Below are positions 21,190 through 63,445 of a stretch of 64,000 nt of DNA, piece by piece. Below the pieces are notes generated by a model that was not told the DNA's origin, searched no databases, and was given only the letters and a program-made list of their open reading frames with translations. Position numbers and translations under genes: made by a program. Origin of the DNA: Candidatus Hydrogenedentota bacterium (GTDB lineage: Bacteria; Hydrogenedentota; Hydrogenedentia; Hydrogenedentales; CAILVY01). How positions within the stretch are numbered: the first letter of the stretch is position 1; each line of letters opens with the position of its first letter. The stretch lies in contig JAKQOG010000290.1 of assembly GCA_029565395.1 (NCBI GenBank), positions 24,035-88,034 of the forward strand. Reading direction: 5' to 3'.

Positions 21190-22053
21190 ATGACACCAGC
21201 CGGGTCCATACGCCGAGGAAGGCATTTTTACAGCTCGCAGACATCTTTTTCGACTGATCTGCGGGTCTGGATCATTATTTCATTGATGATGCATATTGCA
21301 TTGGCGGGTGTCGGATATCGCTTTAATGAATGGTTAATCGCGAGTATTCCCGAAGCCATTACCATTCAACTCTTTGAAGCGGAAGGACCAGGGATGGGTG
21401 AACCCGCCGCCGGCCCCAAGACACCTCCGCCGAAACCTGAAGCACCCAAACCAGAGCCGCCGAAACCGGAACCCCCAAAACCAGAACCGCCCAAGCCCGA
21501 ACCGAAACCAGAACCTCCAAAGCCTGAACCGGTTCCTGAAGTCAAACCAGATCCAAAACCAGAGCCCAAGCCCGAACCGAAACCGGAGCCGAAACCTACG
21601 CCAAAGCCTTCACCGAAACCGGTGGCAAAACCCACGCCAAAACCGGAACCCAAGCCTTTACAGGTGGCAAGCAATACCCCTCCGCGCACCACTCCCGGGG
21701 GAGGGGCATTGACCGGCAAAAGCGGCGTAAGAACTCCGGGCGGCGGCAGCGGCATTCCCTCCGAATTGAGTCTGTGGGGCCGGCAGGTAGTCCGAAAAGT
21801 GGAAGAGCAATGGTTCTATCCCGAAGGCATAGACATCGATCCTGCGAACAACATGGCGGAAGTGATGTTCACAATAGACCGTAATGGAAATTTAACTGGC
21901 GAACCGGCTATTGTCAAAGAAGCGAATGATTCGCGTGTGGGACAATCCGGCTTGGAGGCTATCAAAGCGGCAGCCCCGTTTCCTCCTTTGCCGGAAACTT
22001 ACACGGGAGCCCAATTACAGATCATTTACAGTTTCACCATGGAACAACTTTAA
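21190..22053 (+). CDS. TonB/TolA-family energy-transducer protein (N-terminal TM anchor, Pro-rich PEPPKPEP linker, TonB_C-like C-terminal domain)
   Basis: TM helix, then about 100 aa of (P-E/K-P) repeats, then a C-terminal domain (YPEGIDIDPANNMAEVMFTIDRNGNLTG...AAAPFPPLP) typical of TonB/TolA C-termini; immediately upstream of tolB. Confidence 0.75.
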   Translation: MTPAGSIRRGRHFYSSQTSFSTDLRVWIIISLMMHIALAGVGYRFNEWLIASIPEAITIQLFEAEGPGMGEPAAGPKTPPPKPEAPKPEPPKPEPPKPEPPKPEPKPEPPKPEPVPEVKPDPKPEPKPEPKPEPKPTPKPSPKPVAKPTPKPEPKPLQVASNTPPRTTPGGGALTGKSGVRTPGGGSGIPSELSLWGRQVVRKVEEQWFYPEGIDIDPANNMAEVMFTIDRNGNLTGEPAIVKEANDSRVGQSGLEAIKAAAPFPPLPETYTGAQLQIIYSFTMEQL

Positions 22054-35653: not shown

Positions 35654-37059
35654 TCGTCTCCCAGCCCCATACCCATAACCAGCGCTACCCATGGCGGAAA
35701 CGCCGGCGGCGGGTACTGCTGGCGCTATTTTTGCTCGTTGTACTCCTTGGGGGCGGACTGGCGGTATTTAATTGGAAAATAAACACTCGTACGGAAGCCA
35801 TGCTCAAAACCTTACAGGCATCAGGCATTCCCACCACCCCAAAAGAACTGGAAAATCAATACCCCGCGCCGCCCCAAGGCAAGAACGCCGCTGAAACCTA
35901 TCAAAAAGCCTTTGAGACCGGAAAATACGACGAAAACGCAGAATCCTATGCCAAAATCGACGATAAAATGAGGGAAGAATCCAAGGATTCCAATCATCAG
36001 CCGACTCTATCTGATACGCTGCGCTCCATGGTCCGGGAGTATCTCAATGCGAACGCGGAAACCCTGCGCCTCTTGCATGAAGCCGCGAAAACCCCCGGCA
36101 GCCGCTATCCTTTGGACTTCTCCGATCCCATCAATATGAAATTAGACCATCTGGCCAAAATCCGGCAATCGCTGCGCTTGTTAAAACTGGAAGCCATGCT
36201 GGCCGCGGATGACAAGGATTTCGATAAAGCCCTGGAAGCCATCCGTGCCATGCTGGCGGCAGGGGATTCCGTTCGTCAAGAACCCATATTCATTTCCCAA
36301 CTGGTCCGGAATGCCTGCCATGGGTTGACTGTCGACGCACTTCAGTATGTACTGGCCTCCGGCACATTAACGGAGGAACAACTGGCGCGTCTGAATGACA
36401 TGTTCACACACCAGATAGACACGGAATCCTTTACACGCGGCTTACAGGGAGAATATATAGTCGGCATGGCTGTTTTTGATCGTCCCGAAATTATGGCGGA
36501 CCTCTACAAGGATATGTTTGGGGTTGAATCCTATGTGCCCGGCGCTACACGCACTCTCTTGCGGGTCGTCAGTATGACCGGATGGACGGAAGCGGATCGA
36601 TACCGCTATCTGAGCCGTCTCAGCGAGCTTAACGCTATCAGCCGCATGCCGGTCTATGAGGCCATCCCTGCCATGCAGGCCTTTGAAGACCAAATCCAGC
36701 GAAACAATTCCTGGATACCGACGATTTCCGGAAATCTTTCCTCCGGCCTGAGTAGAGCGGTCTTTTCGTTTGGCCGGGATCAGGCACAGATTCAATTTGC
36801 CACCACCGCCATTGCCATACAACGCTACCAATCATTCACTTCCAAACTTCCGGACTCTCTCAATGACCTTGTTCCGTCTTTCATGAGTTCCATGCCCCAA
36901 GATCCCTTCGATGGACAGCCCATGCGCTACCGCCGAATCGAAAATGGGTACCTCGTGTATAGCGTCGGATATAACCAACAGGACGAGGGCGGAGTTGCCC
37001 CCGCTGAAAATCAGGATAGGTATCGAACCGGAGACATCATTTTTACTCTGGAACACTGA
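35650..37059 (+). CDS. Membrane-anchored protein of unknown function, paralog B (tandem duplicate of 34265..35653)
   Basis: Same architecture and colinear similarity to paralog A: YPWRKRRRR then a TM helix; shared blocks LRLLHEAAK, RYPLDFS, QEPIFISQLVRNACHG; C-terminus AIQRYQSFTSKLPDSLNDLVPSFMSSMPQDPFDGQPMRYRRIENGYLVYSVGYNQQDEGG. ATGA overlap with paralog A. Confidence 0.7.
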   Translation: MIVSQPHTHNQRYPWRKRRRRVLLALFLLVVLLGGGLAVFNWKINTRTEAMLKTLQASGIPTTPKELENQYPAPPQGKNAAETYQKAFETGKYDENAESYAKIDDKMREESKDSNHQPTLSDTLRSMVREYLNANAETLRLLHEAAKTPGSRYPLDFSDPINMKLDHLAKIRQSLRLLKLEAMLAADDKDFDKALEAIRAMLAAGDSVRQEPIFISQLVRNACHGLTVDALQYVLASGTLTEEQLARLNDMFTHQIDTESFTRGLQGEYIVGMAVFDRPEIMADLYKDMFGVESYVPGATRTLLRVVSMTGWTEADRYRYLSRLSELNAISRMPVYEAIPAMQAFEDQIQRNNSWIPTISGNLSSGLSRAVFSFGRDQAQIQFATTAIAIQRYQSFTSKLPDSLNDLVPSFMSSMPQDPFDGQPMRYRRIENGYLVYSVGYNQQDEGGVAPAENQDRYRTGDIIFTLEH

Positions 37060-37783
37060 CTTTTTGAGGTGTGCCGTGTCTGTGGCGTCCCGCGCGGAGA
37101 TTGAGCAATTCCACAAACAGCGAGAAGAACATCGCGAAATAGATGTAGCCTTTTTCAATGTGCTTTCCAAAACCTTCCGCGACCAGCATCACGCCAATCA
37201 ATAGAAGGAATGCCAGGGCCAGCATGCGGATGGTGGGATGGCGGTTGACAAAGCCTGTCACCGCGCCTGCGAACAGCATCATCACCATCACCGCCAGGAC
37301 AATTGCGGCCACCATCACCGGCACGCGCTGCGCCATGCCCACGGCGGTAATCACGGAATCGAGTGAAAAAACCAAATCGAGCAGCAATATCTGCACAATG
37401 GCGGAAGCAAAGGATTTCGCCGCTCTGGCATGTGAGACCTCTGATTCGTCACCTTCTGTTTTCTCGTGGATTTCCTTCACCGCTTTCCAAATCAAAAACA
37501 ATCCCCCGCCCAGCAGAATGATGTCACGTCCAGACACCGGATGCCCCAGCACGGTAAACAGGGATTGCTGCATGGACATAATAAAACTAATGGAAAGAAG
37601 CAGACCAATCCGTAGGAACATGGCCAGCCCCAGGCCAAGCTGACGCGCCTTAGGTTGTTGAGCTTTTGGCAAACGCCCCGTGACCACCGCCAGCACCACG
37701 ATATTGTCAATGCCGAGTACAATCTCCAATGCCGTCAACGTCACCAGCGCTATCAAACTCTCCACCGTCAATAAATCATGCAT
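37043..37783 (-). CDS. terC: TerC-family integral membrane protein
   Basis: The TerC hallmark LEIVLGIDNIVVLAVVTGRLP recurs as a second half-repeat; 246 aa, ~7 TM helices. Confidence 0.8.
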   Translation of the reverse strand: MHDLLTVESLIALVTLTALEIVLGIDNIVVLAVVTGRLPKAQQPKARQLGLGLAMFLRIGLLLSISFIMSMQQSLFTVLGHPVSGRDIILLGGGLFLIWKAVKEIHEKTEGDESEVSHARAAKSFASAIVQILLLDLVFSLDSVITAVGMAQRVPVMVAAIVLAVMVMMLFAGAVTGFVNRHPTIRMLALAFLLLIGVMLVAEGFGKHIEKGYIYFAMFFSLFVELLNLRAGRHRHGTPQKVSVPE

Positions 37784-37850: not shown

Positions 37851-37957
37851 GGGAGGGCGAGGCTCCCGCCGAGCCGTCAAACAAAACATCCAATTATCGT
37901 AGTGTAAGAAGAATATTTTGCTTTTGTTTCACGGCTCGGCAGGAGCCTCGCCCTCCC
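37851..37957. repeat. MITE-like palindromic element, copy 1 (107 bp)
   Basis: Arms GGGAGGGCGAGGCTCCCGCCGAGCCGTCAAACAAAA / TTTTGTTTCACGGCTCGGCAGGAGCCTCGCCCTCCC are near-perfect reverse complements around an AT-rich core. Intergenic, between terC and the oxidoreductase gene. Confidence 0.85.
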
Positions 37958-37960
37958 GGA

Positions 37961-39085
37961 TTATTTAAATTTCACTGCCTTGGACACGGATTGTTCGCAC
38001 ACTTCCCCGGCGGTGACTTCACGGCCCAGCGCATTCGACAAATAAATTCCCTCGGAAATGAGCATGGTATTCAGCGCGATCTCCGCCGTGGGCAACAATT
38101 CGACCCGCCCCTGCAATGCCGCCGCCCAATGATGCTGCGGGCTGTCATACACATCGCCAACGGTATGTACGTTCTGCAAGCGGTACTCGAATGTCTCCAG
38201 ATCCGCCGTGCAATCGAATTCCAGGTCGTCAATGTTGTGATAATAGCCAAACGGATTCAGCCGCACTCCTCCCTGGCTGCCCGCCACTGAAGATCCCTCA
38301 AACGCGTTCAGATGAATGGCCCACGATTCAATGATATCCAGCGTGATGCCGCCCTCGAACCGGACAAACCCCACCCCCAGCTCTTCCACGTCATACCCGC
38401 TCGACGCGCGGCGATTGGGATCCATGTCCGTTTCTTGATAGATCTTCCCCGTGATCGTGAGCACTTTCGGATTGCCCAGCAAATACAGCATGTTCGAGAT
38501 ATGATAGACCCCCATGTCAAACAAAGCGCCCCCCGCCGCCACCTCTTTCTGCACAAAACTGGCCGTGCCATAGCCGTCTACAAACGGCCGCTTGCGCCGC
38601 CGGAATCCGGTGGAGCGCGCATGATACAGCGTGCCCAGATGCCCGCCGTCAATGAGCGCCTTGGCCGCTTTGGTTTCGCGTGTAAACAGCGTAGCCAGTT
38701 GAATGGACAGCTTCCTTTTCAATTTACGCGCGGACGTCAGCATAGCTTCCGCATCGCAATACGCCCCAGCCATCGGCTTCTCGCAAAAAACATGCTTGCC
38801 CGCCTTCAGCGCCGCCACGGCAAAGGGCATGTGCAGATTATTGTGCAGGCAAATATCCACCGCTTCGATATCCGATCGCTTCAGAAGATCCGCAGCATTG
38901 AAATAAACATGCGGAATCTTGTACAGCTTGCCCACCCGCCGCGCTTCCGTCGTATTGGCATCCGCCAGCGCCACCATCTCCACCCCAGGAATGGCCGCAT
39001 ATCGATCCAGATGCTCCTTGCCGATCTGCCCAACACCGATAATGCCCAGGCGCGTCTTTTTCGTACTCATGGCCTTCCCTTTCAC
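37961..39085 (-). CDS. Gfo/Idh/MocA-family NAD(P)-dependent oxidoreductase
   Basis: N-terminal Rossmann block [18 protein letters not shown] block VFCEKPMA, and the family C-terminal alpha/beta domain. Confidence 0.8.
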
Positions 39086-39963: not shown

Positions 39964-40925
39964 ATCTAAAGACGGTCATTGCGAACCCCAAATGATTGTC
40001 CCAGGGCTATCGCATTAAAAAAAGCCGATACATTGACATTTCTCAAGAACCGAGCCTCTCCTTCGCAAGGGATTTGCCAGCGTTTGTTTGAATCAACCCA
40101 ATGACAAAGGCGATTTTGCGGGGAATTTTAATGCGATAGCCCTGATGATTGTCCCGATTATTCATTGAATGGAAAAAGAGGCCGGGAGGGCAAAGTTTAT
40201 CACGCGTCTCGCGTGACTCACGCCGGGCCGTGCGGCAAAACATCCCAATTTGTCATTGCAAGGAGCGCCAGCAACGAAGCAATCTCGGAGCCATGTCAAC
40301 CCTGCCCATAGTAGCGCCACTTTCTTAGCAGCGAAGCGAAGTAATCTCGCCGGATTGTCAGCTGTGCATGGTTTCGGGATTGCTTCGCTTCGCTGCTAAG
40401 AAAGTGGCCATGATCGGGAGGGCGAGGTTTATCCACCGCAGGAGGGCTCCTGATGCTGTCTGAGAATTCTCTTTAAGAGTTATTTGATATGACTTGGCAA
40501 AGCTCAGAGTATCCCGCAGGGATTCAATAATTCCAGCCCAGGGTTGTGCGTCAGCGCTACCCTGGGTATGCTGCATCCCTAGAATAGCGCCTACCCTGAA
40601 AGGGTTGGCGCATGGTTAGGTTTAAAATTAAATTTCAACGCGTTGTATAACCCCTTCAGGGTTGGTTTATTAGGGATCTTGACCCAGGGTAGCGCCGGGC
40701 GCAACCCTGGGCTGGAATTATCAATCCCCGTTGGGGATTGCCGATTTTTTCTGTGATTAGCAGACATCGCACGGTCTCTTTTCGTTGTGATCGGCTTTTA
40801 TGAATTCTCAGACAGACTCGGGAGCCCTCCTGCGGCGGATAAACCTCGCCCTCCCGATGGACATGTTCACAACAAGCGCAAAATAACAACCTATGAAAAT
40901 CGATTAGGGATTCTGCAACGTTAAC
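39964..40925. repeat. ~950-bp noncoding region of nested and degenerate palindromic repeats (MITE nest or possible large structured RNA)
   Basis: No ORF with protein-like composition. Contains an inverted repeat 39988-40020 / 40127-40156; a perfect 26-bp stem 40315-40340 / 40383-40408; a 36-bp inverted repeat 40415-40450 / 40821-40855 starting with GGGAGGGCGAGG (same terminus as the MITE family); and an inner ~45-bp inverted repeat 40519-40567 / 40692-40740. Confidence 0.7.
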
Positions 40926-42816: not shown

Positions 42817-43743
42817 ATGAAACCCGGTAACAATAAAACATCTGACCCCAATTGGATCAAAATCCAGGATGATTTTGCCATACTCCGGCCAAAACAACGC
42901 AACCGGTTCCGCATCCTTCAGGTTACCGACTTCCACTCCAATGTCGACGAAATATTGAACGAAAAAACCCGCGCGGACGTCCGGGCCATGGTCCGGCGTT
43001 TCGCCCCGGATCTTCTGGCGGTCACCGGCGATATCTGGTGCGGCGACGACACCCCGGACGCCGCGCCCATGTGGATGCAGCGCGATCTGGATTTTCTGGG
43101 GGGTCTTGACGTCCCATGGGCATTTATTTGGGGAAACCATGATTATGCAGCGGATTTCGAGGCCGCACAACGCCAAATCGCCGCCACACCGAATGCCGTC
43201 GCTCCGCATGGAAACGGCCGCGGAAATTTCCGTGTGGAAGTGCGCCAGGACAGACATCCGCTTCCCGCTTGGGATCTTTTCTTCTTGAATTCCGGCCCGC
43301 AATGGCAACTGCCCCAGGATCTCGCGTGGTTCCAGGAAGAAACCACACGAATAACTCAGGATCGAGGAACAATCGTTCCGGCTATCGCCTATTTTCACAT
43401 CCCTTTGAAAAATTACCAGGACGCCATCGATCAAGGCCGTACTATCGGCGAAGGAACGGAATACATGCTGAATTGGGGCGATGAGGAAGGCCTTGCGGCG
43501 CCAATATTCAAGCAGGCGGGAAACGTCCGGGCCTGTTTCACCGCCCACAGCCATAAAAATGATTTCTGGTTTGAAGAAGACGGTGTGGTGTTCGCCTATG
43601 GACGCGCCACTGGCTATGGCGGCTACGGCGGCGAAGATCTCCCCAAAGGCGGCAAATTACTGGACCTGGATCTTCATTCCGATCATTTTAGTTTCATGAC
43701 CGTCTTTGGCGATGGCACGGTAGAACAAACAACGGTTCGATAA
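42817..43743 (+). CDS. Calcineurin-like metallophosphoesterase
   Basis: Metallophosphatase motifs QVTDFH, GDIWCGDD, GNHDY and the downstream His blocks. Start at ATG 42817 (MKPGNNK), because the longest ORF from 42619 overlaps the divergent upstream gene. Confidence 0.75.
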   Translation: MKPGNNKTSDPNWIKIQDDFAILRPKQRNRFRILQVTDFHSNVDEILNEKTRADVRAMVRRFAPDLLAVTGDIWCGDDTPDAAPMWMQRDLDFLGGLDVPWAFIWGNHDYAADFEAAQRQIAATPNAVAPHGNGRGNFRVEVRQDRHPLPAWDLFFLNSGPQWQLPQDLAWFQEETTRITQDRGTIVPAIAYFHIPLKNYQDAIDQGRTIGEGTEYMLNWGDEEGLAAPIFKQAGNVRACFTAHSHKNDFWFEEDGVVFAYGRATGYGGYGGEDLPKGGKLLDLDLHSDHFSFMTVFGDGTVEQTTVR

Positions 43744-43761: not shown

Positions 43762-43869
43762 GGGAGGGCGAGGCTCCTGCCGAGCCGTAAGACAAAATAT
43801 CCAAATAGCATATATTCCTGCGACAATCCTGATCTTGTTTTAACGGCTCGGCAGGAGCCTCGCCCTCCC
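43762..43869. repeat. MITE-like palindromic element, copy 2 (108 bp)
   Basis: Termini GGGAGGGCGAGGCTCCTGCCGAGCCGT / ACGGCTCGGCAGGAGCCTCGCCCTCCC; lies between convergent genes (metallophosphoesterase and RDD). Confidence 0.85.
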
Positions 43870-44048: not shown

Positions 44049-44825
44049 CTAATTCGCTTCTCCTGATTTCCGGAAGATGCTGTCCACCGTGTTACGCAAA
44101 TATTGCTCATCGGTTAATCCGGCGGATGCTTCTTCCGGGAATGCGACCTGTTCTCTGAAATGGTCCGCCAGTTCTCTGTAAAGTGCCACCCGCGCATCGG
44201 GGTCCAGCTCATTCCGGCGCATTAACGCTTGCACCAACAGCGCAACTTCCACGGGCGACACCTGCTGCCGCAGGCGCGCTTCCAGATGCGGATAACTCCG
44301 GAAGGAATTGTATTTATCCGGCAGAAGCTGCTGAAGATCCGGCTGTTTGGGCGTGGGGGTATGCACCACCACCGTGTTCGCCGCCAAATCGCCCAGGCGC
44401 TGCGCATGCCGGCTGAACAACATGGCCGCCCCACCCGCCAAATACAGCATCGGCAGCATATCCACGGTGCGCATCAGATTGCGCATCACGATCTGACTGA
44501 ACTGAAGCCGCAAACCCTGCGCATCCATCACGCGGATCTTGAGCAGGAATTTACCCAGGGTCTGACCATGCCATATCCATTCCAGCAAGATATTGTATCC
44601 GGTATTCAATACAAAGAACGTCAGGATGGAAATGGCCGTGGTGAGATCGCCGGAAAATGACTGCAATATGGAAAACGTGGTGAGTACAACCAAGGCCACG
44701 ACTAATGTAACGCCGAAATCTATCCCCCATGCCAGAAACCGGGCGCTGGGACCCGCCAAAAGCAGTGAAAACTCCACGCCTTCCGGCGTGCGCACGGCCA
44801 AGGTGGCGTTGCGGGGTTCAATCAT
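44049..44825 (-). CDS. RDD-family membrane protein (last gene of the MoxR-associated operon)
   Basis: RDD-domain pattern (R...GQTLGKFLLKIRV...D...) with 3 TM helices; start taken at MIEPRN (44825), overlapping the upstream gene end by 8 nt. Confidence 0.7.
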   Translation of the reverse strand: MIEPRNATLAVRTPEGVEFSLLLAGPSARFLAWGIDFGVTLVVALVVLTTFSILQSFSGDLTTAISILTFFVLNTGYNILLEWIWHGQTLGKFLLKIRVMDAQGLRLQFSQIVMRNLMRTVDMLPMLYLAGGAAMLFSRHAQRLGDLAANTVVVHTPTPKQPDLQQLLPDKYNSFRSYPHLEARLRQQVSPVEVALLVQALMRRNELDPDARVALYRELADHFREQVAFPEEASAGLTDEQYLRNTVDSIFRKSGEAN

Positions 44826-61621: not shown

Positions 61622-61811
61622 CGTCCCAGTCATGCCCCGCATTGTGGCTGGAATCCCCGCCGTAAGGCAAATAATCCAACCCCATACACGCTGGCCTCGA
61701 AGAATACTCTTAACCTGCATTTTCCACCAACGCTTAATCATACTCGTCATTGCGAGTTCCCCACCCGCCGCAGGCGGGGTGAATTATAAAGAAACACCTA
61801 AACGCATCCAC

Positions 61812-61914
61812 GCCGTTATCGCTATCGCTATCGCTATCGCTATCGCTTTTGGCATCGCTATCGCTATCGTTATCGCTATCGTTATCGCTATCGCTATCGC
61901 TATCGCTATCGTGT
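61812..61914. repeat. Hexanucleotide microsatellite (ATCGCT)5 - TTTGGC - (ATCGCT/ATCGTT)10
   Basis: Direct reading of 61812-61914. Sits in the ~500-bp divergent region between the giant secreted gene (-) and queF (+). Confidence 0.9.
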
Positions 61915-62247
61915 TCCCCATTATGTCTGCTTCCTCTTCTTCCACCTCATCCAATTGCTCCTACTGGTCCTCTTCTCCCAGTCTTCCCAGTCTCTTGCCG
62001 CGGCGAAGTTCCGGTCTCGCGGAACGAAGCCGGGTCCCAGACCTCCAACCGGTTTGCATCCCCTGCACCTTGCGTTTCTAAAAAGTCCCCGGCGAAGAAA
62101 ACGTGCCAAAAAGAAAACTACTACTGCGATGACCATTTACGCTACGCTTATACACGGCGACTCTGAACATACAAGCAATCTTGGAATGACAAATGAAATG
62201 AAGAGTTGACTAAAAACCAGGGTAGTTTACCGAACATCGAGGCGGAT

Positions 62248-62697
62248 ATGAGCACACCATCCAAAAATCGCGGTCAATTTCAGGCGCAGGACAAGACGAT
62301 CCCGTTCAAGGGCCCGGAGGCAATCGACTCCGCCTGTCTGGAATGTTTTGAATACGCATATCACAACACGCCGCACGGTCAGGCCATGGAAATCGTCACC
62401 ACCACGAACGAGTTCACCTCCGTGTGCCCGTTTTCCGGCCTGCCGGATTTCGCCGAGGTGAAAATCGCCTACATCCCGGACAAGCGCTGCATCGAGTTGC
62501 GCTCGTTGAAATATTATCTGCTTTCCTACCGCGATGTGGGCATTTGGTATGAACACCTCGTCAATCGCATGCTGGAAGATCTCGTTCGCGCGTGCAAACC
62601 CCGCCGAATGACCATCACCATCACCTGCAATCCTCGCGGCGGCCTCGCAAGCACTGTCACCGCCTCTTACGACCGGGAAACTAATCCCGCGCTTTAA
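62248..62697 (+). CDS. queF: NADPH-dependent 7-cyano-7-deazaguanine reductase QueF (unimodular type I)
   Basis: Active-site Cys block TSVCPFSGLPDFA and the QueF motif E(L)RSLKYYLLSYRD; start at ATG 62248 with RBS AGGCGGA (longest ORF from 62206). Confidence 0.8.
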   Translation: MSTPSKNRGQFQAQDKTIPFKGPEAIDSACLECFEYAYHNTPHGQAMEIVTTTNEFTSVCPFSGLPDFAEVKIAYIPDKRCIELRSLKYYLLSYRDVGIWYEHLVNRMLEDLVRACKPRRMTITITCNPRGGLASTVTASYDRETNPAL

Positions 62698-62719: not shown

Positions 62720-62826
62720 GGGAGGGCGAGGCTCTCGCCGAGCCGTAAAACTAAACAACCCAATGCAATATGATTAAACAATAATCCCGATCTTGTTTGA
62801 CGGCTCGACGGGAGCCTCGCCCTCCC
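62720..62826. repeat. MITE-like palindromic element, copy 3 (107 bp)
   Basis: Termini GGGAGGGCGAGGCTCTCGCCGAGCCGT / ACGGCTCGACGGGAGCCTCGCCCTCCC; lies between convergent queF and udk. Confidence 0.85.
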
Positions 62827-62842
62827 ATACACAGGGAAATGA

Positions 62843-63445
62843 TTAGGCCAAGCGGGATCGGATCTCCGCAATGACGCTCTGCCACGCGTCCACGGTTTCT
62901 CCGGAAACAATTCTTCCGGCAAACGCTTTTGCCGGTTCGACAAATTGTTCGTGCATGGGCTGTACCTGACTCTGAAATTGTTGAAGCACGCTCTCGCGGG
63001 TCCGCCCGCGCTCCGCTACATCCCGCTGCATACGCCGGCTCAGCCGCTCCGTCTCATCCAACTCCACGAAGAGCGTTAAATCAAAAAGAGCGCGCAAGTC
63101 CGGATGCCCCAACACATGCAGCCCCTCCACCACAATAATGGGCTTGGGATGAATGCGGCGGCAGCCCGGCGCACGCACATGCCGCGTAAAATCGTACACC
63201 GGCGCTTCAATCGGCGCCCCGGCTTTCAAGGCGAGCAATTCCTGAATGAGCCGATCCGTCTCCAGGGCATCGGGATGGTCATAGTTGGTCAAAAGCCGTT
63301 CTTCAAACGTCTTGGCCTGCTGATCCCGGTAATACCAATCGTGTTCCAAAACAACCGTCTGTTCCGGGAAACAATCGCAAATATATCCCGCAAGCGTGCT
63401 CTTACCCGAACCCGTCCCGCCCGCAATGCCAATACATACTCCCAT
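62843..63445 (-). CDS. udk: Uridine kinase
   Basis: P-loop IGIAGGTGSGKST at the N-terminus and uridine kinase/PRK-family blocks (DHPDALETD, VVEGLHVLGHP, RRMQRDVAERGR). Confidence 0.8.
   Translation of the reverse strand: MGVCIGIAGGTGSGKSTLAGYICDCFPEQTVVLEHDWYYRDQQAKTFEERLLTNYDHPDALETDRLIQELLALKAGAPIEAPVYDFTRHVRAPGCRRIHPKPIIVVEGLHVLGHPDLRALFDLTLFVELDETERLSRRMQRDVAERGRTRESVLQQFQSQVQPMHEQFVEPAKAFAGRIVSGETVDAWQSVIAEIRSRLA

Follow-up and report, generated by a model that had tools for sequence, protein, structure and literature searches.

Background

Repetitive extragenic palindromes (REPs) and their inverted doublets, the REPINs, have been described mostly in Proteobacteria, usually as partners of a domesticated transposase that are specific to one lineage and inherited vertically. 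REPs have been characterized as species-specific (PMC6006769). REPINs associated with the REP-associated tyrosine transposases (RAYT) consist of two inverted hairpin-forming modules and a spacer, about 100 bp in total (PMC3116915; Nunvar 2010; PMC3733652). Genes of the class 3 TnpA_Y1 transposases (HUH) occur chiefly in Planctomycetes, Acidobacteria and Proteobacteria (Quentin et al. 2018, PMC6006769). The hairpins that flank them in Table S1 of that study, CCGAGCCGCGACCGTAAGGGAGCGG (Legionella), CAGAGCCGCGACCGTTAGGGAGCG (Solibacter) and CACGAGCCGGAAGCGTGAGCGACGG (Planctomyces limnophilus), are nearly identical across three phyla; one example reads CCGAG CCGC GA CC GTAA GG GA GCGG, with the foot CnGAG (PMC6006769). 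Here we analyze a family of palindromic repeats of about 107 bp (family 1) that is present in three copies in a 64,000-nt stretch of a Candidatus Hydrogenedentota bacterium (assembly GCA_029565395.1, contig JAKQOG010000290.1; hereafter "the window", whose coordinates are used for all positions). Like the REPINs of RAYT systems, the element consists of two inverted hairpin-forming modules separated by a spacer, about 100 bp altogether. In contrast to the usual description of REPs and REPINs, its 25-nt module recurs almost unchanged in other phyla, where it builds a different doublet in each lineage.

Bacterial miniature inverted-repeat transposable elements (MITEs) with long terminal inverted repeats (TIRs) are exemplified by Correia/NEMIS of Neisseria and by the 107-bp RUP of Streptococcus pneumoniae. 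Those elements exhibit target-site duplications (TSDs) of TA or other sequence, are tied to DDE transposases (IS630-type for RUP), and have been proposed to serve as terminators or RNA-processing sites. The window element resembles them in size (about 100-155 bp), in TIRs of about 26 nt, in its intergenic location and in its long hairpin. However, it exhibits no TSD, and its arms are self-folding modules that are also found alone. We propose, with a confidence that we place near even, that two REP-like hairpin modules form a REPIN-like doublet in this element, and that an enzyme, probably of the HUH type, moves the doublet in trans.

The element and its copies in the window

The initial annotation of the window had placed three palindromes of about 107 bp, with TIRs of about 27 nt, at the positions listed below. 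Inspection of the sequence, arm search and folding all agree with this description. The 27-nt arm GGGAGGGCGAGGCTCCCGCCGAGCCGT matches the window six times at up to three mismatches, always as part of one of three inverted pairs, and not once across 100 dinucleotide-preserving shuffles.

37851..37957, unstranded: copy 1, family-1 element of about 107 bp (repeat search, folding, Pfam neighbours)
37851..37877, + strand: copy 1 left arm, foot GGGAG, hairpin GGC-GA-GGC-TCCC-GCC-GA-GCC, then GT
37931..37957, - strand: copy 1 right arm, the same module with T at position 17
43762..43869, unstranded: copy 2, 108 bp, arms complementary at 28 of 28 positions (repeat search, folding, Pfam neighbours)
43762..43788, + strand: copy 2 left arm (arm search)
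43843..43869, - strand: copy 2 right arm (arm search)
62720..62826, unstranded: copy 3, 107 bp, orthologous site empty in two related species
62720..62746, + strand: copy 3 left arm (arm search)
62800..62826, - strand: copy 3 right arm (arm search)

The arms of the three copies are 27-28 nt long and 94-100% complementary to each other, and the elements (107-108 bp) contain no open reading frame (ORF). The folding of each copy as a long hairpin, also claimed in the annotation, is well supported. As RNA, each element forms a single long hairpin with a free energy of -59 to -76 kcal/mol (z-score -9 to -13); as DNA, the corresponding values are -34 to -41 kcal/mol and -9 to -11.

The arm module and its hairpin

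One genome per GTDB species was scanned with the pattern GGGAGGGCGAGGCTCNNGCCGAGCC, and at least 120 stretches matched. The 160-match alignment, the pair counts of the genome sample and the figures for 120 loci given below rest on the matches listed from this species-representative scan; L-numbers are labels of individual loci or stretches retrieved by the scans. The alignment of 160 oriented matches reveals that the arm is a sharply bounded 25-nt module, Y-GGGAGGGCGAGGCTCCYGCCGAGCC-G: conservation is found solely from the pyrimidine (Y) at position -1 to the G at +26, with random flanks on either side, and position 17 is either T or C. The module exhibits a foot GGGAG followed by the stem GGC, GA, the stem NNC, the tetraloop TCCY, the stem GNN, GA and the stem GCC, the two GA dinucleotides forming a symmetric GA/GA internal loop (.....(((..(((....)))..))) in dot-bracket notation).

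Covariation indicates that each arm is itself a small single-strand hairpin. Among the 83 arms not fixed by the search pattern, the pair 11-20 is G-C in 55 cases, A-T in 19 and C-G in 2, with 7 non-pairs, and the pair 12-19 is G-C in 65, C-G in 8, T-A in 1 and A-T in 1. When viral contigs were scanned with positions 11, 12, 19 and 20 left free, both pairs were Watson-Crick in 25 of the 29 arms, in four combinations. For 71 unique arms, 91.5% of the cells are paired in the proposed structure, and 32 cells are changed on both sides, versus 5.8 +/- 2.2 in shuffles (none of 500 reached 32). The covariation score is 0.275, versus 0.109 in shuffles, and all slid controls scored lower. Two rival intra-arm hairpins, GGCTC/GAGCC (pairs 11-25 to 15-21) and GGGAG/CTCCC (pairs 1-17 to 5-13), exhibit no covariation.

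The module shares with the class 3 hairpins the order of a 5-nt foot ending in GAG, stem, GA, stem, tetraloop, stem, GA and stem, as well as a possible high copy number, near-identity across phyla, overlapping host taxa and co-occurrence in some loci. The sequences differ, however, the common part being only CCGAGCCG in another register, and the foot is not CnGA(G), with only GAG in common. The REP tables of Quentin et al. 2018 (PMC6006769) do not contain the module sequence, and our literature search for it returned only chance matches in papers on eukaryotes. Rfam gave no match at the gathering score over the whole window, and for the element alone at E <= 10 it gave only generic miRNA-precursor hairpins far under threshold. 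Elements of this kind are already known; what appears to be undescribed is the module, together with its GA-bulged structure carrying a GGGAG foot and its near-invariance from phylum to phylum.

Paired arms, solo arms and mosaics

In the genome sample, the arms occur chiefly as head-to-head inverted pairs with GGGAGGG pointing outward (64 such pairs versus no tail-to-tail pair within 400 nt). Taking the + strand arms of all sets together, 90 have an intact partner, 14 a decayed partner and 43 are solo, with no tail-to-tail arrangement. Solo arms thus make up about 29%, and some arms stand in tandem. Paired arms enclose loops of 0 to 248 nt (median near 25). These loops are unrelated between lineages and related within one genome, as in the two L184 doublets and in the window family; within a genome, copying therefore acts on the doublet as a whole rather than on the single arm. 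The TSDs that the initial annotation had suggested looking for were not found: the 64 inverted pairs exhibit none above chance level for k = 2-9 at three offsets. The flanks exhibit only a slight excess of complementary runs of at least 3 nt (9 seen, about 2 expected).

These features are those of REPs and REPINs in several respects. The arm is an imperfect palindrome within the 20-40-nt range, forming a hairpin according to its covariation, and it occurs as inverted doublets with a spacer and as solo units, which look like decayed remnants. As with REPINs, the copies are extragenic and numerous, lack target duplication, and join other REPs in clusters resembling bacterial interspersed mosaic elements (BIMEs). 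Unlike in REPs, the foot that follows Y is GGGAG, not GTAG or CGTC, the hairpin has a GA/GA internal loop, and no RAYT was found in our searches (see below).

BIME-like mosaics were observed in metagenome-assembled genomes (MAGs) of Planctomycetaceae (L009, L017, L018, L034, L097 and L107), where the arm stands in fixed order with other repeats: GTAG-tagged REPs (GTAGCCCGAGCATTCCTGCTCGGC), a CACCGAGCTGGTGCTCGGTGG hairpin, a class-3-like GGCGAGCCGTTAGCG...GCTGACGGG hairpin and (GTCAGTT)n heptamer arrays. Such ordered mosaics, together with a 1-kb intergenic nest of repeats in the window, recall the BIMEs of enterobacteria. However, the components are unrelated to the E. coli REP/BIME motifs, and they are not known to bind integration host factor, gyrase or Pol I. 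The class-3-like hairpins constitute a separate family, present in 12 of the 120 listed loci; in 4 of those 12 an arm lies no more than 100 nt away.

It should also be noted that the published class 3 TnpA_Y1 hairpin recurs almost exactly (GAGCCGCGACCGTAAGGGAGCGG and variants) at L051 5476-5546, at about 4111 in L052, at L014 7675-7735 and at L084 984-1105. These copies, often arranged as inverted doublets, come from Phycisphaerae, Planctomycetota and Isosphaera MAGs and from one record labelled Alcaligenaceae, and they represent a second hairpin family found across phyla.

Taxonomic distribution

Among the matches listed, most are Planctomycetota according to the record title (Pirellulales, Gemmatales, Planctomycetales, Isosphaerales, Phycisphaerae and Tepidisphaerales), including chromosome-level assemblies. 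Other records are labelled Verrucomicrobiota, Victivallales, Armatimonadota, Acidobacteriota, Binatia, Nitrospirales, Ignavibacteria, Zixibacteria, Thermodesulfobacteriota and Proteobacteria; several of these non-Planctomycete labels look doubtful by GC content. We regard three phyla as supported for the module, namely Hydrogenedentota (the window), Planctomycetota and Armatimonadota, the last on the basis of L007, where a DUF1802 protein has its best named matches in Chthonomonadales. The motif has no match in the plasmid and phage collections searched.

Copies in the Hydrogenedentes population and insertion at udk/queF

Scanning metagenomes with a family-specific pattern (the arm plus GTNANACNARA) yielded 35 stretches. 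Seven of them, which lie outside the Hydrogenedentes population, turned out to be unrelated small GGCTC...GAGCC hairpins. The remaining stretches belong to the same population and provide 23 unique elements of 80-112 bp, at least 20 of them beyond the window copies. The possibility, entertained in the initial annotation, that the element is confined to three loci is thus contradicted by at least 23 distinct copies in contigs of the population. The density is 3 copies in about 73 kb of contiguous sequence, and the hundreds of copies per genome given in the initial annotation are an extrapolation.

The family-1 consensus reads GGGAGGGCGAGGCTCCYGCCGAGCCGT, AARACAAAAYATCCAAAT, about 20-25 variable nt, TCCCGATCTTGTTTNAC and GGCTCGGCRGGAGCCTCGCCCTCCC, with an asymmetric interior that allows an "A end" to be told from a "B end". 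The inward extension of the palindrome noted previously (AAACAAAA / TTTTGTTT, with a GATCTTGTTT box) is conserved in the 23 unique copies. Mean pairwise identity between copies is 0.96 and 0.95 for the two arms, 0.63 and 0.74 for the subterminal boxes and 0.39 for the centre. The two arms of one element covary: L140 carries the A11..T20 variant on both, and position 17 forms T-A in 12, C-G in 6 and G-C in 2 of the family copies. In the flanks of the 23 copies, only Y at -1 and a purine (R) at +1 stand out. Family copies mostly begin 3-30 nt past a stop codon, between tandem or convergent genes and in either orientation; this context derives from crude ORF-based gene calls, which are unreliable (many false "intragenic" calls) and are used here qualitatively only.

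In the window, the neighbouring genes were identified by Pfam and by the genes called on the source contig, and they bear out the gene context previously given for the three copies. Copy 1 lies 3 nt past the stop codon of a GFO/IDH/MocA oxidoreductase gene (37961-39070, -) and 67 nt ahead of terC (37043-37783, -), both genes being on the - strand. Copy 2 lies 18 nt past the stop codon of a metallophosphoesterase gene (42817-43743, +), which is convergent with an RDD gene (44049-44825, -). Copy 3 lies between the convergent genes queF (62248-62697, +) and udk (62843-63445, -), 22 nt and 16 nt past their respective stop codons.

In reverse complement, the window corresponds to positions 32796-96795 of a 179-kb contig, DAONNH010000001.1, in the MAG GCA_035393045.1. 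All three copies are present at the same loci in every sampled assembly of the population (JGI 3300009780, 3300025871 and 3300010355; ENA; Logan) and are therefore considered fixed in the species.

Empty orthologous sites in related species support the insertion of copy 3. The gene order groEL-udk-queF is kept in two relatives, L200 (Udk 84% identical) and L197 (Udk 69% identical). In these relatives udk and queF are also convergent, either 3 nt apart or overlapping by 4 nt, with no element between them, and the 20-kb locus of L197 contains no arm anywhere. The udk/queF spacer of the window measures 145 nt and holds the 107-bp copy 3. With two outgroups in which udk and queF abut, an insertion in the window lineage is the parsimonious reading.

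Search for a cognate enzyme

Homologues of known enzymes were sought in the window and in the DNA flanking the copies. A phmmer search with E. coli RayT returned nothing in the window and flanking DNA, and 20 RAYT/TIRYT sequences rebuilt from the supplement of Di Nocera 2013 (E. coli RayT and 19 further ones) returned no Y1 homologue; the sole weak RAYT match (L157, E = 0.011) is out of frame inside a gene of 928 aa. A regular expression for the class 3 signature (NHVH...Y....Q), applied across the retrieved loci in place of a class 3 protein query, also returned nothing. All-versus-all clustering of the ORFs within 1.5 kb of arms recovered only abundant Planctomycete families, and the ORFs of motif-dense "viral" contigs contain no transposase domains. 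About 1.6 Mb of DNA between and near arms yielded no insertion sequence (IS) or transposase bearing these ends.

Where inverted arms stand far apart, the genes enclosed by them are ordinary. In L026 and L099 they are small ORFs whose translations, the only evidence considered, exhibit no recognizable transposase features. In a Verrucomicrobiae MAG (L005 3819-4654), a 157-aa ORF, VOC/PhnB-like by eye, lies between two outward-facing arms 786 nt apart; it could be a captured passenger gene, or the locus could be just two solo arms.

A DUF1802 (PF08819) gene adjoins an arm in two phyla (L007 59-658 and L090 179-763), the arm being located just upstream; the L007 contig begins inside the element, and L090 has no called gene of the metallo-beta-lactamase (MBL) fold upstream. 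Three homologues on long contigs (L201-L203) have the motif nowhere within 4 kb, and a Lactamase_B gene always precedes them. The adjacency of DUF1802 and arm is therefore taken as a coincidence. Independently of the arm, DUF1802 genes form a conserved pair downstream of a gene of the MBL fold in several phyla; the domain has no solved relative and almost no literature.

Interpretation

In this Hydrogenedentes genome the propagated unit is the whole doublet, that is, an arm, GT-AARACAAAAYATCCAAAT, about 20-25 variable nt, TCCCGATCTTGTTTNAC and an arm. Copies would be made in trans by a single-strand-DNA enzyme encoded elsewhere. Among candidates, an HUH/Y1 transposase, either a RAYT or one of the "class 3 TnpA_Y1" kind, is the likeliest; it would read the foot and the GA-bulged hairpin and would cut and join without target duplication. 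Such an enzyme is favoured because the module combines the class 3 architecture with the same unusual constancy across phyla; this Y1 step is less certain than the structural description of a REPIN-like doublet. Past stop codons, the GC-rich stem of 27-36 bp would probably also act as a barrier to transcription or to exonucleases, a role that could explain why identity has stayed at about 95% in the arms but has fallen by drift to about 39% in the centre.

Several observations weigh against this proposal. Ordinary REP-RAYT systems are lineage-specific and vertically inherited, whereas the present module is almost invariant across phyla (at least 120 stretches), and its GGGAG foot matches none of the described REP tags GTAG, CGTC and CnGA. 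Neither the window nor about 1.6 Mb of DNA surrounding more than 250 copies yielded an HUH/Y1 gene or any other transposase, an absence that would be expected if the enzyme were encoded by a single-copy gene. A lone arm folds no better than shuffled sequence (z about +0.3), and the case for the arm hairpin is made by covariation only, because the thermodynamics of a single arm are not significant. At udk/queF the relatives are too distant to fix the exact boundaries of the insertion, 16 and 22 extra nucleotides flanking copy 3. Finally, all sampled strains carry all three copies, hence there is no direct sign of recent movement.

The MITE label of the initial annotation holds in part: the element is dispersed, short, non-coding, palindromic, intergenic and inserted at the 3' ends of genes. 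A classical MITE would be a deletion derivative of, or a fortuitous TIR pair used by, the DDE transposase of an IS located elsewhere, which would bind the 27-nt TIRs as double-stranded DNA. Perfect TIRs of 25-28 nt in an element of about 107 bp without an ORF are as expected for this, as are the GGGAGGG end facing always outward in the manner of transposon ends, the empty sites in related species, the exactly identical outermost 12 nt of a 446-bp second family in the window, and the nested and compound copies (both described below). On the other hand, none of the 64 pairs exhibits a TSD, no transposase lies between or near the arms in about 1.6 Mb, and the supposed TIR is a self-folding module that also occurs solo (about 29% of arms), in tandem and in mosaics. 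Its intra-arm covariation points to a single-strand hairpin, which would be needless for a TIR bound as double-stranded DNA, and the loops are unrelated between lineages while the arm is invariant. We consider a classical MITE quite improbable, and the label should shift from "MITE" to "REPIN-like doublet of a REP-like hairpin module".

The location of the copies makes a role as terminator or mRNA stabilizer plausible. A purely host-maintained structural element, with no mobility of a selfish kind or none any longer, would act as a bidirectional transcription block at 3' ends, as a protector of mRNA 3' ends or as a site for a host protein; such a function is compatible with a REPIN-like doublet as a secondary role. 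All three window copies and most family copies lie 3-30 nt past a stop codon, the copies are fixed in every sampled strain, and the arm is near-invariant across phyla. The identity of about 95% in the arms versus about 39% in the centre suggests purifying selection or conversion acting on the stem of each copy, and changes in the two arms compensate each other. Nevertheless, the stems are not directly followed by a U-tract (a T-rich stretch is present 8 nt downstream of copy 2, on the + strand alone), our scan of the window for terminator-like sites did not pick up the elements, and their loops of 35-58 nt differ from the 3-8 nt of intrinsic terminators. Copies are found in both orientations relative to transcription (by the crude gene calls), solo arms keep their sequence although they cannot form the long hairpin, and related species lack the element at the same site, where the genes abut. 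We also know of no host factor specific for such a sequence. Host maintenance without mobility is in our judgement unlikely. The possibility that the hairpins act as RNA, as small structured RNA genes or cis-regulatory motifs, is far more distant. It would agree with the strong predicted RNA structure, with the arm covariation, which is equally compatible with RNA, and with the sole arm mismatch of copy 1, which is C-A on the + strand and G-U on the - (transcribed) strand. However, there is no Rfam match at the gathering score, no association with promoters was seen, the solo arms are oriented without bias with respect to neighbouring genes (8 in the same direction, 10 in the opposite one; crude calls), inverted pairs place the G-rich hairpin on both strands, and the centre is not conserved.

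Going beyond the REPIN-like doublet itself, we tentatively raise the possibility that the 25-nt GA-bulged module (GGGAG-GGC-GA-NNC-TCCY-GNN-GA-GCC) serves as the recognition element of a single-strand-DNA system that is undescribed and spreads horizontally. The enzyme of that system, a new HUH/Y1 subclass or another type, would be so narrowly specific that the DNA module remains essentially the same in Hydrogenedentota, Planctomycetota and Armatimonadota. The module and the class 3 hairpins might then form one superfamily of "pan-phylum REPs" from which lineage-specific REPIN-like elements and BIME-like mosaics are built. If the enzyme is found, the system would offer a tractable case for the reading of a foot plus hairpin by single-strand-DNA enzymes and for the spread of repeats between phyla. 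The modules also break assemblies, seed spurious ORFs (peptides ...SLALP and ...EPRPP) and mark the 3' ends of genes; recognizing them improves annotation in the poorly studied Hydrogenedentota, Planctomycetota and Armatimonadota.

Other repeats and features of the window

The 998-nt spacer between 39927 and 40926 is a nest of repeats of at least four types, in which the following elements were identified.

40413..40858, unstranded: 446-bp element of a second family, 57-nt inverted ends 93% complementary
40527-40721: 195-bp palindromic element nested in the 446-bp element, with ends ATAATTCCAGCCCAGGGTTG...
40316-40408: third repeat type, a 93-bp near-perfect hairpin with arms GCCACTTTCTTAGCAGCGAAGCGAAGTAATCTCG
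40205..40290, + strand: decayed chimeric half-copy of family 1, consisting of a degenerate arm, the A end (GCAAAACATCCCAAT) and a GTCATTGCAAGGAGCGCCAGCAACGAAGCAATCTC module

The ends of the 446-bp element open with the same 12 nt as family 1, GGGAGGGCGAGG (the foot, the first stem, GA and GG). Further copies or compounds of this second family are found in the same organism (L159/L138 and L164), with a partial match in the related species L200. In the compounds, a family-1 element without the outer 12 nt of one of its arms is joined to the inner part of an end of the 446-bp element; this fusion is seen in L159/L138 and independently in L164. Since the outermost 12 nt are common to both families, they are the best candidate for a functionally critical end. 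The chimeric half-copy has an intact counterpart at L145 7048-7140. Another instance of the third repeat type, a GTCATTGCGAGGAGCG..AGCGACGAAGCAATCTC module (40251-40290; L145 7090-7140), is joined to half of a family-1 element in these two loci.

Two further repeats were observed in the window. An array of the tandem hexamer (CGCTAT)n at 61802-61939 (L121 11507-11644) lies just upstream of an ORF of 1620 aa. L121 and L122 are 100% identical up to this array and wholly different beyond it, one assembly continuing with the 1620-aa gene and accessory genes and the other with carB and other genes; this divergence represents either a structural variant or an assembly join at the microsatellite. At 21430-21528, a direct repeat with a 15-nt period (CCNAAACCNGAACCN) lies within an ORF and would encode a Pro/Glu/Lys-rich repeat of the PEPKP type.

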